From the IMG/VR virus record IMGVR_UViG_3300034062_002410, positions 1 to 64,000 of that record: 64,000 bases of DNA, one strand, 5' to 3'. The notes under the pieces were generated by a model, which saw only the letters and a list, made by a program, of their open reading frames with translations, made no database searches and had not been told where the DNA came from. A program made the translations under genes and the position numbers. This document shows positions 48,043 to 55,814 of the stretch, piece after piece (within the stretch, counting starts at the first letter, position 1; the number at the start of each line of letters is the position of its first letter). The DNA is from a virus.

Positions 48043-49101
48043 TTAACTTCTTTGGTAATCTGAATCAATAGTAAATATACCATTGTGAATTTCTATTTCA
48101 TAATCTTTATCCCAGCCATTTTCTTCTTGCCATTTATAGATTTGTAATAGATTTTTCCAACCATACATTTTTATTACTGATTCTTGTGTCCCACTAGCAT
48201 CATTAACATAGTATTGCCTTATTTTAGATGAGCCATATTTACCTGCATTTATAAACTCATTAGTAGTGTTAAATACAATTGGGTCACATTGTTTAGTAGT
48301 AGAAGCAACAATAAATTTAAAATTATCAACTTGATAATCTTTAAGGTTATCATCTCTCCATTTTTCTAAACCTTGTAAGTACCAAGATGCTTGTATATCA
48401 TATCTTCTTCTAAGGCATTGATAATCAAAGAATTTAGTATAATCTCCAATAGTTTTAATATCTATTGGTGTTATAGTTTTAGTTTGAAAATCAACAATTA
48501 CCATATCTAATAATGCTTTACATTCTACATTATTTTCTGTAAAATAAATAGGTAACTGATAGTAAATATTTATATGCTCCTTTGCTATAAAGTAGTCTTT
48601 AGTAAATCTGTGTTCTAATAATTGACTTACAATACTATCTATCTTAAGTATTTGTTCTTTATCTAACACAATTTTACCTTCACTCTGTAATAGTTCATTC
48701 CAATAACTTTCACCTTCTACTGAAACTTTAGTAATCTTAGTGTCAGGTTTCCAATTTGGTTGATAGTTATGTGCTTCAATTGCAGCTAATAGATTATTAT
48801 CAAAGAAATTATCTGATTCTCTGGATTGAAATACCTGTTGTACTATTGACATAATAGTATCACTTGGTTTTACAATGTCAGAAACATAATAATTCTCATC
48901 AAAATAATCTTCTCCCATAGTAATAAAATCATCTACTGCTTTACCAATCAAGAAATGTTCTTTTTCTTCAAAGAATAAATCAGGTTCCTTAACTTCTTGA
49001 AATGCTTGTGCACTTATACTTAGAAGTTTTAACTTACTCTGATTCATTGCAGGTGAATTTATATACTCCTGTATTTGTTCTTTACTACTTCTTATTATCA
49101 T
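48043..49101 (-). CDS. PD-(D/E)XK exonuclease (RecE/DUF3799-like)
   Basis: NQSKLK, CKALLDMVIVD...PIDIKT and RYDIQASWY motifs. Confidence 0.8.
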   Translation of the reverse strand: MIIRSSKEQIQEYINSPAMNQSKLKLLSISAQAFQEVKEPDLFFEEKEHFLIGKAVDDFITMGEDYFDENYYVSDIVKPSDTIMSIVQQVFQSRESDNFFDNNLLAAIEAHNYQPNWKPDTKITKVSVEGESYWNELLQSEGKIVLDKEQILKIDSIVSQLLEHRFTKDYFIAKEHINIYYQLPIYFTENNVECKALLDMVIVDFQTKTITPIDIKTIGDYTKFFDYQCLRRRYDIQASWYLQGLEKWRDDNLKDYQVDNFKFIVASTTKQCDPIVFNTTNEFINAGKYGSSKIRQYYVNDASGTQESVIKMYGWKNLLQIYKWQEENGWDKDYEIEIHNGIFTIDSDYQRS

Positions 49102-49453
49102 AAACTAATTTTAATAATGTGAAAAAATCCTCAAAAGTCATAGTTACCAATGAACTATAATCATCCCTTTTCTTTCCTGGTTTACCTTGCTTATGATGTA
49201 TAAGCACTTTAGGAAATTGTTCTGAAAGTTTAGGAAGCTTAGTATCAATGTTCTTTAAGACCTCTTCAGGTTTCATTCCTTTATGTACTCCTGCTTTAAT
49301 TTGTACAAGTAAAGGAATATTTGCTAAATCTACTCCACCATCATCTAACATTCTTGATGCATATCTGCTTGTTTGACAATCAGGGAATAATTCCTTAAAC
49401 TTTTGGGCATAAAACCTTTCAGCGTTATGCCCTTTGTTTCTATTTTGATTCAT
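49085..49453 (-). CDS. small PD-(D/E)XK nuclease, Holliday junction resolvase-like
   Basis: RNKGHNAER...GVDL...VQIK motif pattern. Confidence 0.65.
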   Translation of the reverse strand: MNQNRNKGHNAERFYAQKFKELFPDCQTSRYASRMLDDGGVDLANIPLLVQIKAGVHKGMKPEEVLKNIDTKLPKLSEQFPKVLIHHKQGKPGKKRDDYSSLVTMTFEDFFTLLKLVYDNKK

Positions 49454-49928
49454 TAATAACTAGTTGTAATTTATCCTGTGATACAATGTAGGTGTCAACA
49501 TACTTACTCAAAGATAAGAGATAATTCATAATTTTAGAATACTTTTTATCAGCTACATATTTCTTATCAATATATAATGCTAAACAAGAATTTCTATAAT
49601 ACTGATACTCTCTTAACTTGATAAAATATTGCTTCTTGTGTTTATTAACTACTTGAGCTACTATATTTAATGTTAAAGAATCAACTATAATGCCTTTAGT
49701 AATAAACAAATCTTCTTTTGGTAAATAAGCTACTTTAGGAGTAGTTGTAAAAAATGCTGTTAATACTTTATCAGTAGATGTTTTATTAGCTTTTACTAAA
49801 TAAATAGTTGTGCCATTATTTCCATTAATGTTATTTGCACTACTAAAAAACTTATCTATATAAATTGTACTACCACTTACATAAGTATCATATCTTGGAA
49901 ATATAACATTGAAATCATCGTGCTTCAT
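49440..49928 (-). CDS. hypothetical protein overlapping the E1 gene
   Basis: 162 aa; overlaps the E1 gene by 14 nt and the downstream nuclease gene by 14 nt. Confidence 0.6.
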   Translation of the reverse strand: MKHDDFNVIFPRYDTYVSGSTIYIDKFFSSANNINGNNGTTIYLVKANKTSTDKVLTAFFTTTPKVAYLPKEDLFITKGIIVDSLTLNIVAQVVNKHKKQYFIKLREYQYYRNSCLALYIDKKYVADKKYSKIMNYLLSLSKYVDTYIVSQDKLQLVINESK

Positions 49929-50674: not shown

Positions 50675-51739
50675 TTACAATGTGTTTTCTTCTGTTAACA
50701 ATTCTATCAATTCACTCAACACAACAAATTCATCAGCACTAAATATTAACTCCTCAATAAACTCTTCCCAAGTATCATCTAATTCAGATTTAAGAATAAA
50801 TGGTTTTCCATAATACTCACCCATCCATTTCTTAAAATTAGATTTTATAGAAGCAGCATAATCATGTAGATTAAAATCTTGAAATTGAGTTACTGAATTT
50901 TCTAAATCTTCTAATGCTTGTTCTAAATTATCATTTGGAACATCCATACCTAATCTTAGAATTTTACAAAACAATGGTTCTGATGCATTAAACAAACTAA
51001 CTCCTTCAGAAGGCATTGCACTTGTATCTTGCCACCAAGTAGCTTCATCAAATAACTCTGTCTGAGTATATTTAGAATTAGATTTAGGTTTATAAAATTC
51101 AATCTTTGGAACAGGTTTAGGCTTGTTAATAGCTGTAAACTGATTTAAGAATGTTTCATCTACATTCCAAGTAGTTTCAGGTAGAACTATTTTACAATTA
51201 TAATTACCTACATATTCATCTTCTTCTGTTGATGATAATGTAGTTATAGAATTATCAATATTTTGAAACTCAAATGTTGTAGGTGTAACTGTTTTAATTC
51301 TAAATGCAATCTTTGCAGAAAACTCATGTCTATTATTTACAATAATACTTAGATAAGGCTTAATGTGTTCAGAGTTTTCTACAACTTCATCTGTATCTGT
51401 ACCTGAAAAGAATGTTTTCATGTTGTGATGTGAATGAAGATGTCCTATCTTTAAATGAAAATAATCTTTTTCCATCATATAAGATAATACTCTTTGGTCA
51501 AAAGAATACTCAGTAAATCCTGCACTACCTTTATCTAATGGAATCATATCCTCCACTTTAATATAGACAGTTTCAGGTTTTGCAAGGTCACCTTCAATTG
51601 AATAAAATGTACAACCACTCCATTCTACTTCATTGATGTAAGAACATAAGTATTGTATCTTTTCCCAAACTAAATGGGATAATTTTACAGGAATTATGTA
51701 CTCAAAATCATACAGTTTCAACTTTTTTATATTTTTCAT
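50675..51739 (-). CDS. JAB/MPN+ metallopeptidase (deubiquitinase-like)
   Basis: N-terminal EWSG glutamate and GHLHSHHNMKTFFSGTD (HxH...SxxD JAMM motif); acidic C-terminal extension. Confidence 0.85.
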   Translation of the reverse strand: MKNIKKLKLYDFEYIIPVKLSHLVWEKIQYLCSYINEVEWSGCTFYSIEGDLAKPETVYIKVEDMIPLDKGSAGFTEYSFDQRVLSYMMEKDYFHLKIGHLHSHHNMKTFFSGTDTDEVVENSEHIKPYLSIIVNNRHEFSAKIAFRIKTVTPTTFEFQNIDNSITTLSSTEEDEYVGNYNCKIVLPETTWNVDETFLNQFTAINKPKPVPKIEFYKPKSNSKYTQTELFDEATWWQDTSAMPSEGVSLFNASEPLFCKILRLGMDVPNDNLEQALEDLENSVTQFQDFNLHDYAASIKSNFKKWMGEYYGKPFILKSELDDTWEEFIEELIFSADEFVVLSELIELLTEENTL

Positions 51740-52931
51740 TTGCTAAATAATTTAGAATTTTATTATAATAATGATTTTCATTCAACTTGTTATAAATATA
51801 ACAAAGTGCTGGTTTAGTAATTTTAACTTCAAAGTTATCAGTTAATGATGCATTAGTTAATATTACAGGTCTTCTAGTTTTTTTAAATAAAACATACTTA
51901 CCTTCAATTTTATATTTCAAATCTACTGAACCAAGTTTGTTTACTACTTCTCCATTAGAATAGATAATAAAACTAAATGGATAACTTGAAAAAGAAAAAC
52001 CAGCTGAAATAAGTAACCCAACTAAAATCTTTTCAAAATAATCATCTTTAAATACTAATTCATTATTAATTAAGAAAATAGCATTCTCTTTAACTAGTCC
52101 ATCTATTAATAAATAAAGATACTTATTGTCAAAACTCCTAGTAATGTACTTAGTCAAATTAAACAATTCAATTACTGATGATTTAACTACTGTATTATCT
52201 GTAAGATATGACATTTTGATATATGGACCACCCTCTAATGACTCATACTGCAAATATGCTTTAAGATTGAGAAGAAATAAGTTAAATACATTTGGTATTT
52301 CTTCTTTATTCTTATTCAATATTTGTTCATATAACATCATCATTGACATAGTAATATCAGTACCTGAACCTAAACAAAAATTAGTAAAACCAACTGTAGC
52401 AGAAGAAGGTAAATGAGAATGACTATAATTCTTTTCAAGTTGTAATTCTGTAAAACTACCTCTCCTACCTAATAATCCTTTGTTATGTATATCACCTTGT
52501 TGAGTAATATGAAATTGTACATACATATCTGTTATGTGAATAGACCTATTAAGTTTATTAGTAACTTTTAATTCAGGATAATGTATTACAACAGTTAATC
52601 TAGGATAATAATGCATTATTTCAAAGTATAAATCACCATTATATGTAGTATTTATATATTCAAAATAGTTAAATGGAATTTTAGCATTAGTTTGATGATT
52701 TAAAATTCCAAAAGTATCAGATAATGCATGTACATTACAATCATAAGATAAATATATATCATAATCATATCCTTGTTTGTCTAACTCAGTTTTAATGATA
52801 TTGTAAAACCAAAATATGCTTGATAAATTTTTATTTAATGTTTTGTAATACAGCAAGTTATTGATTCTGTTTAAATCTACATTACGTTTTTGATTATTTT
52901 GATTATAAAACAATGATGCTATTCCTAACAT
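51708..52931 (-). CDS. prokaryotic E2/UBC-like conjugating enzyme
   Basis: YSHSHLP...FTNFCLGSG resembles the E2 HPN/HPH...C active-site pattern; lies between the Ubl and JAB genes. Confidence 0.65.
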   Translation of the reverse strand: MLGIASLFYNQNNQKRNVDLNRINNLLYYKTLNKNLSSIFWFYNIIKTELDKQGYDYDIYLSYDCNVHALSDTFGILNHQTNAKIPFNYFEYINTTYNGDLYFEIMHYYPRLTVVIHYPELKVTNKLNRSIHITDMYVQFHITQQGDIHNKGLLGRRGSFTELQLEKNYSHSHLPSSATVGFTNFCLGSGTDITMSMMMLYEQILNKNKEEIPNVFNLFLLNLKAYLQYESLEGGPYIKMSYLTDNTVVKSSVIELFNLTKYITRSFDNKYLYLLIDGLVKENAIFLINNELVFKDDYFEKILVGLLISAGFSFSSYPFSFIIYSNGEVVNKLGSVDLKYKIEGKYVLFKKTRRPVILTNASLTDNFEVKITKPALCYIYNKLNENHYYNKILNYLANEKYKKVETV

Positions 52932-52944
52932 ATAGATATAAATT

Positions 52945-52975
52945 AAAAAGAGCCTGATTGTTAGTCAGGCTCTTT
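52945..52975 (-). terminator. terminator/attenuator hairpin between the Ubl and E2 genes
   Basis: Minus strand AAAGAGCCTGACT-AACA-ATCAGGCTCTTTTT. Confidence 0.65.
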
Positions 52976-52989
52976 AGTTAGAAAATAAT

Positions 52990-53637
52990 TTAAATCTTTC
53001 CTTTCATCTTACTAATCCACTCATTTTCTGCATCTGTAAGTAAATCTGACTTTGTATTCATAGACTCACAAATAGTAGCAGCAGATACATGACCATTAAT
53101 AAGGTCAAATGCAAGTTCAAAATCATCTTTTCTTGCTTTATACTCATTACTAAAACGTAATGTATTTATAGCAGATTCTAAAAGGTGAGATTCATCTTCT
53201 TCATCCTCATTGTCATAATTATCTTCAACATACTCTTCTTCATAATCATCATCTTCACTTTCATTTTTCCAAGATAACAAAAGAGCTTCTAACTCATCTT
53301 TAGATTTGTTAGTGTAGTTTTTGTTACCTGCATTAAAATGCTCGTGTGCAGCTTTTTTGTCATCTTCAAATGCTTGTTTGATTTGTAGTCTTATCTCACT
53401 ATAAGATAATCCACCACTCTTAGTTTTCTTAGGAGCTAGCATTAGTACAAATTCGCCATCAGGAAGAACAGCTTCATCTAACTCTAAGTTAGAATTGTTT
53501 TTGTTCTCTACTGCTGTCATATCAGATACTGAATAACCTTTATTAGTCAATTCATTTTTAAGTTGACCCCAGTTAGTTGCATTAGAGTCTACTACTGCGA
53601 TACCTGTTGCAGTAGAATAAATTTTAATTTTTCTCAT
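52990..53637 (-). CDS. ubiquitin-like (beta-grasp) protein precursor with C-terminal extension
   Basis: Residues 1-76 follow a strand-strand-helix-strand pattern (RKIKIYS; IAVVDS; TNWGQLKNEL; FVLMLAP) and end KKTKSGG; a helical and acidic tail follows. Confidence 0.65.
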   Translation of the reverse strand: MRKIKIYSTATGIAVVDSNATNWGQLKNELTNKGYSVSDMTAVENKNNSNLELDEAVLPDGEFVLMLAPKKTKSGGLSYSEIRLQIKQAFEDDKKAAHEHFNAGNKNYTNKSKDELEALLLSWKNESEDDDYEEEYVEDNYDNEDEEDESHLLESAINTLRFSNEYKARKDDFELAFDLINGHVSAATICESMNTKSDLLTDAENEWISKMKGKI

Positions 53638-54651: not shown

Positions 54652-55437
54652 CTAGTCCCAAGAACTTTGAATTGGTTCTGTTCCATCAGTAGCTTTAGCA
54701 AAATTAGAAGTCATAAACCAATCAGTTCTTGTTACTGGGTGAAGTACAAAGTTACCATTATCTTCTTTTACATAAATCAAACCTTTATTAGAATCTACTG
54801 TTATAGTAGCATCTCCAATACTAAGATTAAATTTCTTAGCTCCACCATTAGTTACAGGATAATCTGTACCTCTAAATGTAAAAGTCATAGCTTTACCATC
54901 AATAGTGATAGGCTCATAGTTACCTTCTTCAGCAAATACAAATACTTTACCTTGTTTTACATTAGATGGGATTTCTACATACTTAGTACCATTGTCATTC
55001 TTAGAAGTCCATTGATATTGACAAAATACATCTAAGTTAATAGAACTAAAATCAGTAGGTAATAACTTAGCAAGAGCATTACAGTAAGATTTAAAGTTAG
55101 ATACTCCCAATAATCCTTGTTTTAAATCTTCTTCAGTTATAAAACATTTCATTAATTGAGAAATCTTAGCATTAAATTCATTAAATGCAGCTCTCATTTC
55201 ATTACTGCGAGGGTCAGTAATTTTGTTGCCATTTTTATCAATAGCTTGAGTTACAGGAAATTGACGCCAGTTTTTAACTGCTCCTCCTGAAAATTCAAAT
55301 GCAATATCAATACATTCCTGAGCAGCACCATCTTTGCCACCATTAGGATTAAACTCAAACTTCGTCATCTTAACTCCTTGGTTAAGACCAAAATTCATTG
55401 AACTTGATGATTTCTCATCATTTGCATATCCATACAT
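54652..55437 (-). CDS. hypothetical replication-module protein (SSB-like candidate)
   Basis: Located between the AAA ATPase region and primase; beta-rich N-terminus; the function is inferred from context only. Confidence 0.45.
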   Translation of the reverse strand: MYGYANDEKSSSSMNFGLNQGVKMTKFEFNPNGGKDGAAQECIDIAFEFSGGAVKNWRQFPVTQAIDKNGNKITDPRSNEMRAAFNEFNAKISQLMKCFITEEDLKQGLLGVSNFKSYCNALAKLLPTDFSSINLDVFCQYQWTSKNDNGTKYVEIPSNVKQGKVFVFAEEGNYEPITIDGKAMTFTFRGTDYPVTNGGAKKFNLSIGDATITVDSNKGLIYVKEDNGNFVLHPVTRTDWFMTSNFAKATDGTEPIQSSWD

Positions 55438-55494: not shown

Positions 55495-55521
55495 AAAAAG
55501 GGAAAAGGGTTACTTTTCCCT
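55495..55521 (-). terminator. terminator-like hairpin
   Basis: AGGGAAAAG-TAACC-CTTTTCCCT followed by TTTT on the minus strand. Confidence 0.55.
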
Positions 55522-55529
55522 ATTATTCT

Positions 55530-55814
55530 TTATTCGAATACAGCTAATGTAGAATCTATTACTGGTGTTTCTTCTACATTTTCTACAGGATTAGTGATTT
55601 CACTAATTACCTTTTGAGTTACAATTACTTCTTGAGTAACATCATCCAACAAATCAATAGGTTGTTCTACTTTTTTAGTCTTTCTACCTTTAAGAAGTGG
55701 GTGATTAAATACAGATTTAAGTTGAGCAGTACTAAGGTTGTACTTTTCCTTAATCTGTTGTCTTGTTTGACCATTAGTTAGGTCATTGAGGATTTCTGAA
55801 ATTTTGATTTGCAT
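55530..55814 (-). CDS. small HTH-like DNA-binding protein
   Basis: GQTRQQIKEKYNLSTAQLKSVF resembles a helix-turn-helix. Confidence 0.5.
   Translation of the reverse strand: MQIKISEILNDLTNGQTRQQIKEKYNLSTAQLKSVFNHPLLKGRKTKKVEQPIDLLDDVTQEVIVTQKVISEITNPVENVEETPVIDSTLAVFE

Follow-up and report, generated by a model that had tools for sequence, protein, structure and literature searches.

The window analysed here, a 64,000-nucleotide stretch of viral DNA (positions 1 to 64,000 of IMG/VR virus record IMGVR_UViG_3300034062_002410), carries on its minus strand a cassette of four genes whose products resemble the parts of a ubiquitin-type conjugation pathway (Table 1). One gene encodes a predicted two-part precursor of a ubiquitin-like protein (Ubl), which we call pro-Ubl, and it is followed by genes for a probable ubiquitin-conjugating enzyme (the E2-like protein), a JAB/JAMM metallopeptidase and a minimal activating enzyme (E1) of the ThiF type. 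Iterated searches of all open reading frames (ORFs) at 79 loci, cited below by L numbers where they must be told apart, showed a conserved gene order: a gene like that for single-stranded DNA-binding protein (SSB), then primase, Ubl, E2-like, JAB and E1. All four cassette genes are present at 62 of the 79 loci; at the other 17 the available sequence runs out inside the last cassette gene detected or shortly behind it.

Table 1. Features of the pro-Ubl gene and its cassette in the window (numbered from the first nucleotide of the window).
Feature	Coordinates	Strand	Basis and remarks
pro-Ubl gene	52990..53637	minus	215 amino acids plus stop; ORF calling
Ubiquitin-like beta-grasp domain, residues 1–75, C-terminal end K-T-K-S-G	53413..53637	minus	Predicted model and fold matches; P69, K71, K73, S74 and G75 conserved
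Codons for Gly75 (invariant) and Gly76 (variable), predicted cut between them	53410..53415	minus	Conservation and fold of JAB with precursor
Tail, residues 76–215, predicted second product	52993..53412	minus	Length 1–209 among relatives; separate ORF in 7/7 short-tail loci
Conserved tail module, residues 97–122 (H-F-N, then K-N-Y-T-N-K-S, then E-L)	53272..53349	minus	Nearly invariant alignment columns
Acidic low-complexity tract, residues 126–150	53188..53262	minus	pLDDT <50 over 128–145; low identity, indels
C-terminal helical part, residues 151–215	52993..53187	minus	Model helices 148–214
Terminator-like hairpin just after the pro-Ubl stop	52947..52975	minus	Stem of 11 pairs (5 G-C) and, behind it, a T-rich run
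E2-like protein, 407 amino acids, invariant Cys186	51708..52931	minus	43-sequence alignment, model and VIA list
JAB/JAMM metallopeptidase, 354 amino acids	50675..51739	minus	Invariant JAMM residues; weak Prok-JAB match; fold with precursor
Minimal ThiF/E1-type adenylating enzyme, 252 amino acids	49915..50673	minus	Pfam ThiF 4e-16

The basic layout of pro-Ubl agrees with what an initial annotation had drawn from the letters of the window. The ORF confirms its reading frame and the run K73-S74-G75-G76, with the codon for residue 76 ending at nucleotide 53410, and sequence and model together confirm that a helical segment, an acidic tract (25 residues, rich in Asp, Glu and Tyr) and C-terminal helices follow the Ubl. 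We modelled the protein with AlphaFold2 on 23 homologues (mean predicted local distance difference test score (pLDDT) 76.8). Residues 2–69 form the succession strand-strand-helix-strand-strand, residues 73–75 are floppy (pLDDT <50), and beyond the Ubl the model places helices at 79–130, then the disordered stretch and the second helical part listed in Table 1. Foldseek matched the model to ubiquitin, NEDD8 and SUMO in the Protein Data Bank (PDB), with target-normalised template modelling (TM) scores of 0.6–0.71 and a root-mean-square deviation (rmsd) of 2.4–3.3 over 74–83 columns. In a wide VIA structure search, all 50 rows listed were beta-grasp proteins aligned over pro-Ubl residues 1 to about 74, the best with Z 8.1 and rmsd 1.9 over 68 aligned residues. 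By its predicted fold, the N-terminal domain is ubiquitin-like. At the level of sequence, none of 35 family members matched a Pfam family of ubiquitin type at E ≤0.01, and a pro-Ubl profile retrieved no solved Ubl from the PDB; a profile match to Legionella Lpg2149 (E 0.043) was taken as noise.

Homologues were gathered by a word-indexed protein search (51 sequences) and by a pattern scan of IMG/VR (77 loci); 55 non-duplicate loci and the window gave 52 distinct pro-Ubl proteins. The family is large. A profile run exhaustively against 1.84 billion cluster representatives returned 2,417 of them at E ≤0.001, 1,725 at 1e-10 and 275 at 1e-30. Among the best 150 of the 2,417, 144 were proteins new to our set, a sample biased to long tails since the profile contained tail columns. 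Gly75 is found in all 52 distinct relatives, and a glycine stands at the last Ubl column of the profile in all 144 further representatives. The residues leading up to it are nearly as constant (K71 in 49, K73 in 51 and S74 in 47 of the 52, with Ala in the remaining 5). Residue 76 among the 52 is Gly in 12, Ser in 9, Ala in 6, Leu in 5, Lys in 5, Asn in 4, Ile in 4 and Val in 3, and among the 144 it is Ala in 55, Leu in 17, Val in 12 and Gly in 11.

Because glycine at residue 76 is confined to 12 of the 52 and 11 of the 144 proteins, the di-glycine is not a family trait; the family signature, judged from these alignments, is K-x-K-S/A-Gly, which would give a mature tag of 75 residues. The initial annotation had singled out a 76-residue domain of ubiquitin length ending in Gly-Gly; across the family only Gly75 is invariant, and both the length and the di-glycine are coincidental features, confined to the window's own lineage. 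Its suggestion that the precursor is cut after the di-glycine holds in so far as a Ubl is followed by a separable second module and lies beside a JAB gene, but the predicted site moves to the position after Gly75 and away from the Gly-Gly pair.

The candidate for making this cut is the JAB protein of the same cassette. Its JAMM motif (a Glu, then H-x-H-x7-S-x2-D) is intact, and E39, H102, H104, S112 and D115 are invariant in all 37 JAB sequences. The window protein matches Pfam Prok-JAB weakly (E 0.0081, 16.5 bits against a cut-off of 25), as do 23 of the 37 members at E ≤0.01 (best 1.7e-4), and a JAB profile found no solved JAB in the PDB. When the JAB was folded with the full precursor, using alignments of 37 and 35 rows, respectively, the interaction prediction score from aligned errors (ipSAE) was 0.62, 0.62 and 0.64, against 0.00 for the best of three controls; at least 71% of contacts were common to the runs, and the partner pLDDT was at least 69. 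These scores pass a mark that is reached by 58 of 80 solved complexes and by 2 of 110 mismatched pairs, a calibration that holds only roughly here because custom alignments were used. The confident interface joins Ubl residues 5–13, 36–50 and 64–75 to JAB residues that include all five invariant positions of the motif; Ubl residues 68–75 contact E39, H102, H104, S112 and D115, and past residue 75 there is no confident contact. Such a predicted interface fits a cut after Gly75.

A second line of evidence comes from the varying number of residues that follow Gly75, which is 1–5 in 7 of the 52 proteins, 59–75 in 11 and 87–209 in 34 (one of these cut by the contig end). At all seven distinct short-tail loci, the Ubl stop is separated from the E2-like gene by a helical, acidic ORF of 48–74 residues. 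In L054 and L060 the ATG of this ORF and the Ubl stop codon share nucleotides; in L069, L076 and L079 the ORF extends into the 3' end of the Ubl gene but is read in a different frame; and in L062 and L052 it starts 9 and 45 nucleotides, respectively, past the Ubl stop. Separate samples yielded contigs with nearly the same split arrangement (L068 and L069, L075 and L076, L053 and L054), which argues against assembly errors. The Ubl and the small ORF combined are about as long as the medium fused forms, and the ratio of non-synonymous to synonymous polymorphism (pN/pS) in paired small ORFs is 0.46 and 0.53. The small ORF of L069 and the 64-residue fused tail of L051 align over their whole lengths (score 67, z 6.9, reached by 0 of 200 shuffles), and that of L076 aligns with the fused tail of L061 at z 5.9; a long-tail profile scored these two small ORFs no better than E 0.18–0.19. 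Homology of small ORFs to tails is thus supported by shuffled pairwise alignment, and by that alone, for L069 and L076 only. The short-tail loci retain all three enzymes. From the gene layout, we conclude that the gene was apparently split or fused exactly at the invariant Gly; among the comparative arguments for two halves that would work as separate polypeptides, this one is the strongest.

The other two enzymes of the cassette also have their putative catalytic residues in place. Across 43 sequences of the E2-like protein, N125, S172, H173, C186, G188, E230, S231, G234 and P236 are invariant. Positions H171, S172, H173 and C186 are invariant or nearly so and a helix of the model starts at residue 192, an order read from alignment and model. 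The model (pLDDT 78.8, predicted TM score 0.75) drew a wide VIA list dominated by UBC, UEV and RWD folds, which make up about 30 of the 50 rows listed, judged by title, with Z up to 6.7. BubB of Citrobacter was second best (Z 6.0, rmsd 3.9, 116 aligned residues, 16% identity), and Tsg101 UEV, UbcH7 and Cap2 scored 5.8, 5.6 and 4.5. As every one of these Z values is below 8, the identification of the 407-residue protein as an E2 is probable, not proven. The E1 has a single Pfam ThiF match over residues 16–134, and UBA5 (3.7e-9), then PaaA, MccB and MoeB, are its best solved relatives. Its ATP site is intact. Invariant in 37 E1 sequences are G22 and G24 of the glycine-rich loop, D45, D47, K68, D123, N124, R128 and C195.

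Between the precursor gene and the enzyme genes lies a terminator-like hairpin. A like hairpin occurs in 51 of 56 distinct Ubl-to-E2-like spacers, compared with 4 of 54 primase-Ubl, 1 of 49 JAB-E1 and 0 of 46 E2-like-JAB control junctions. At the short-tail loci it follows the small ORF and not the Ubl. The hairpin therefore ends the gene pair whether this is fused or split, giving tag and partner a shared transcript end apart from the enzymes, and it is plausible that the phage produces more of the substrate and its partner than of the three enzymes.

The surrounding genes show further variation. As called, the E2-like and JAB ORFs overlap by 32 nucleotides (51708–51739), and by about 10–290 nucleotides in most relatives; part of this overlap may be an artefact of start codons placed too far upstream, and part may point to translational coupling. 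JAB residues from about 200 to 354, outside the JAMM domain, are poorly conserved, and the confident interface with the precursor includes none of them. Some relatives (L039, 7884–10271; L061 and L063, 7713–11939) have a JAB gene in two pieces about 0.9–1.1 kb apart, and the E1 gene is in two pieces 0.3–1.2 kb apart in L047 and L048; introns, inteins or inserted homing-endonuclease genes could account for these splits. The E1 varies in size through an extra region, from 252 residues in the window to 336 in DAC15 (L002, 10108–11118) and 383 in gp76 of crAss001 (L080, 6191–7342). Directly after the E1 gene, and overlapping it by 14 nucleotides, is a minus-strand ORF of 162 residues (49440–49928) with no Pfam, PHROG, PADLOC or NCBIfam match; an iterated search found only 12 related ORFs across the 79 loci, 11 of them immediately downstream of E1. 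On the other side of the cassette, a perfect 9-bp hairpin (55499–55521), terminator-like on both strands, separates a 94-residue ORF (55530–55814) from the SSB-like gene (54652–55437), and in L027 (4764–5720) the primase gene is in two pieces, which could be a frameshift or an assembly error.

The tail that follows Gly75 is uneven in its conservation. Among mid and far relatives of the long-tail class, residues 97–122 are 65–72% identical to the window and the Ubl 55–59%; in the far group alone, the values are 65% and 55%. The acidic tract is the least conserved segment (14.5–21% identity, with indels), and the C-terminal part falls into residues 149–200 (16–25%) and 201–215 (33–44%). Comparison with three close relatives gave pN/pS values of 0.15 (Ubl), 0.22 (residues 76–127), 0.66 (acidic tract) and 0.70 (residues 151–215), which rest on small counts and non-independent pairs. 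The initial annotation had looked for conservation that ends at the K-S-G(G) site and a tail that varies. Conservation of the Ubl does end at K-S-G and the tail does vary, but closer relatives keep residues 97–122 better than the Ubl.

At the position of the acidic tract, relatives have Pro/Thr/Val-rich or Lys-rich linkers, and the alignments mark the tract as a fast-changing linker. A role of the acidic tail as a DNA mimic, put forward in the same annotation, is therefore not supported as a family function, given the poor conservation of the tract (down to 14.5% identity, with indels) and the other low-complexity linkers of relatives. Neither is a SAP/HeH-like DNA-binding motif at the tail start, seen by eye and in one HeH match (E 0.0056 among 35 members), supported: SAP, HeH and Rho_N gave no match in 33 tails at E ≤1 and none in 10 further proteins or tails at E ≤10. 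We found no recurrent Pfam family for the tail. A protein atlas offered no usable match by features and structural matches only up to TM 0.37, and in the wide VIA search of the whole pro-Ubl model all rows fell within residues 1–91, so that the tail was barely covered.

The window belongs to a crAss-like phage, and the cassette occurs in other phages of this kind. A tblastn search of phage records with pro-Ubl found 32 records, of which 29 belong to Flavobacterium phages of the FpV4 group and the other 3 to DAC15 and DAC17, crAss-like phages of Bacteroides, and the same search with the JAB found 74, including crAss001, the PhiCrAssBcn series, Kehishuvirus, Kolpuevirus and uncultured cr-phages. 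The cassette of crAss001 runs from gp79 (a Ubl likewise ending in K-x-K-S-G, plus a tail with a similar motif) through gp78 and gp77 to gp76; it corresponds to gp048–gp051 in DAC15 and gp53–gp50 in FpV4. In these three phages the genes are annotated solely as hypothetical, 'metalloprotease domain' or 'thiamine biosynthesis protein', with crAss001 gp77 a 'metalloprotease domain containing protein' and gp76 'thiamine biosynthesis protein, ThiF'. Our literature search, which did not extend to subscription papers or supplementary gene tables, found no publication that links crAss-like phages to a ubiquitin-like system; the operon tables of PMC11601596 and those that list genes in genomic studies of crAss-phages may name the genes. 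Full-text literature on bacteriophage sets of Ubl, E1-like, E2-like and JAMM proteins yielded bacterial and archaeal systems only.

We propose that pro-Ubl is a pro-protein in which residues 1–75 are a ubiquitin-like beta-grasp with the flexible K-T-K-S-Gly75 as its business end. The neighbouring JAMM peptidase would cut the Gly75-Gly76 bond to leave a 75-residue tag with a C-terminal Gly. The minimal E1 would then adenylate Gly75, hold the tag on Cys195 and pass it to Cys186 of the 407-residue E2-like protein, which would conjugate it to targets. The same cut would free a 140-residue helical protein, which some related phages appear to encode as a separate gene. We consider it likely that pro-Ubl is cut after Gly75 to give an activatable Ubl. 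A fuller scenario can be offered only tentatively: the cut might be a timed step that frees two active proteins, namely a phage-owned tag, attached by the E1 and E2-like enzymes of the phage to host or phage proteins during DNA replication, and a conserved helical partner (residues 76–215, or the small ORF of other phages) that directs or restrains tagging as an adaptor or an inhibitor.

Several observations weigh against this proposal. Besides the rough calibration of the fold pair, the score of the JAB with the precursor may reflect likeness to solved JAMM-ubiquitin complexes and not binding of this particular pair. The better conservation of residues 97–122 than of the Ubl in tail-bearing relatives also fits a two-domain protein that stays uncut. 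The remaining five of the seven small ORFs are only weakly like fused tails (z ≤5.7 among 315 pairs, median z 0.34), a medium-tail profile retrieved no small ORF at E ≤10, and the word-indexed protein search gave no stand-alone short homologue, so that short forms come solely from IMG/VR contigs. Finally, the E2-like assignment is based on middling structural scores (Z ≤6.7); Foldseek returned nothing for this model at E ≤0.001, Pfam E2 families were matched by 0 of 43 members, and the E2-like profile found no E2 in the PDB.

Three other explanations deserve to be set against these data. One is that the tail is a disposable pro-peptide, a cap that blocks Gly75 until the cut and has no activity of its own, which we think unlikely. 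The great variation of tails in length and sequence would suit a cap, as would the sufficiency of 1–5 residues in 7 of the 52 proteins, the want of a recurrent Pfam family or usable protein-atlas neighbour for the tail, and the fast evolution of the acidic tract and residues 151–215. However, the short-tail loci keep a small ORF of similar size and character beside the Ubl and before the same terminator, the pN/pS of these small ORFs (0.46–0.53) speaks against dispensability, and residues 97–122 are strongly conserved.

It is improbable, in our judgment, that the cassette instead serves sulfur transfer, with a ThiS/MoaD-type Ubl that is trimmed by the JAB, adenylated at Gly75 and converted to a thiocarboxylate for phage thio-modification of nucleotide, DNA or tRNA, and with the 407-residue Cys protein as a sulfur-transfer or insertion enzyme and not an E2. 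JAB trimming of sulfur carriers is known from QbsE/QbsD and CysO/Mec+. The best NCBIfam matches of the E1 are to ThiF and MoeB models (7.6e-20 and below, all under the cut-offs), MoaD-type chains stand at VIA ranks 6, 16 and 36 among the fold matches of the Ubl, the cassette sits among replication and nucleotide genes, and the E2-like protein has no sequence match to any E2 family. Yet the best alignments of that protein's core are to UBC, UEV and RWD folds, BubB among them, and its order of H-S-H, loop, Cys and helix fits the layout of an E2. A Pfam scan of nine neighbouring proteins, among them those of the cassette and of three genes past E1 (48043–49928), found no rhodanese, cysteine desulfurase or ThiG/MoaE-type partner, and the window carrier ends in Ser-Gly, whereas ThiS and MoaD end in Gly-Gly.

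The last explanation is an uncut protein, an adaptor linked to replication in which the beta-grasp serves as a permanent interaction domain, while the enzymes act elsewhere or only on the stand-alone forms of other phages. We give it very little credence. The well-kept residues 97–122, the low pN/pS of residues 76–127 (near that of the Ubl), the position of the gene after SSB-like and primase genes and the absence of a stand-alone form among close relatives would all suit it. Against it, the domain closes with an invariant Gly although the residue behind it and the linker are free to vary, fission falls exactly at this Gly, the predicted fold places the C-terminal strand and tail of the Ubl in the JAMM site, and loci of every tail length retain the JAB, E1 and E2-like genes.

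If the tentative scenario of two active products is true, a ubiquitin-type conjugation cascade would be owned by bacteriophage and would be shared widely by crAss-like phages whose Bacteroidota hosts live in gut, freshwater and marine settings. The precursor provides an experimental handle, with one invariant Gly, a predicted cut and a second product that is repeatedly split off or fused. Lys73 stands two residues before Gly75, and trypsin should therefore leave a Ser-Gly remnant on tagged lysines, by which targets could be found through mass spectrometry. The family includes the cultured crAss-like phages crAss001, DAC15 and FpV4, so these ideas are testable there.

Ubiquitin-type tagging in bacteria has been studied as an anti-phage defence (Bil, Cap2/Cap3 of the cyclic oligonucleotide-based antiphage signalling system (CBASS), probably Bub), and here the kit is phage-owned. 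Like the window set, BilABCD consists of a Ubl, an E2 (a probable one in the window), a JAB and an E1, and its JAB pre-processes the Ubl, BilC cutting BilA between Gly97 and Ala98; the Ubl of E. aridi Bil has one residue after the reactive Gly, as in the short-tail forms here (Chambers et al., 10.1101/2023.09.26.559546). The Bil E1, by contrast, has tandem domains and a Cys domain (PMC11601596), whereas the window E1 has 252 residues and one ThiF domain. Bil acts against phages, whereas the window set belongs to one, and no PADLOC model matched the window Ubl, E2-like protein or JAB.

Type I Bub shares with the window set a Ubl fused C-terminally to another protein, a JAB cut (predicted in the window) right after a conserved Gly (BubCD cuts the Ubl-E2 fusion BubAB just after Gly229) and a minimal UBA5/ThiF-like E1 (Ye et al., PMC11601596); BubB, as given above, ranks second among the structural matches of the window E2-like protein. 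It differs in that the fused partner is the E2 itself, which has Ser in place of Cys, the JAB and E1 are fused, catalysis proceeds via Ser and Tyr oxyesters and a DUF6527 serine protease takes part (PMC11601596). The window set, in contrast, has four separate genes, a helical fused partner that belongs to no known family and an invariant Cys in both the E1 (Cys195) and the E2-like protein (Cys186), and no DUF6527 match was found by Pfam among the scanned window neighbours. The owners differ as well, a phage here and, in Bub, a bacterial locus thought to be defensive (PMC11601596).

Phages are already known to carry a Ub-like domain with a conserved C-terminal Gly, a linker and a small C-terminal domain in the tail assembly proteins I and K of lambda and T1, and the adjoining JAB was predicted to cut protein I at the Gly (Iyer et al. 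2006, PMC1779556). As that account presents it, the lambda/T1 set is without an E1 or E2, lies in a tail assembly cluster and has its JAB fused to an NlpC/P60 peptidase (PMC1779556). The window set, by contrast, lies in a replication module beside E1 and E2-like genes.

A further likeness is to the PRTRC systems, which we take to be the same as operon type 6d of mobile DNA. The window E1 matched the NCBIfam model PRTRC_ThiF (1.3e-8, 34.5 bits, cut-off 144.75) and the JAB matched PRTRC_A (0.037, 13.6 bits, cut-off 101.8), both falling far below the curated cut-offs. Type 6d resembles the window set in its parts: a small Ubl that has Gly at its C-terminus, a JAB, an E1, an E2-like protein whose Cys is conserved and an alpha-helical protein (Iyer et al. 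2006). Set against the defining architectures of Bil and Type I Bub, the window set conforms to neither. It stands apart as a set of four separate genes that is owned by a phage, has apparently Cys-based enzymes and brings with it a predicted helical second product, either fused to the tag or encoded beside it.

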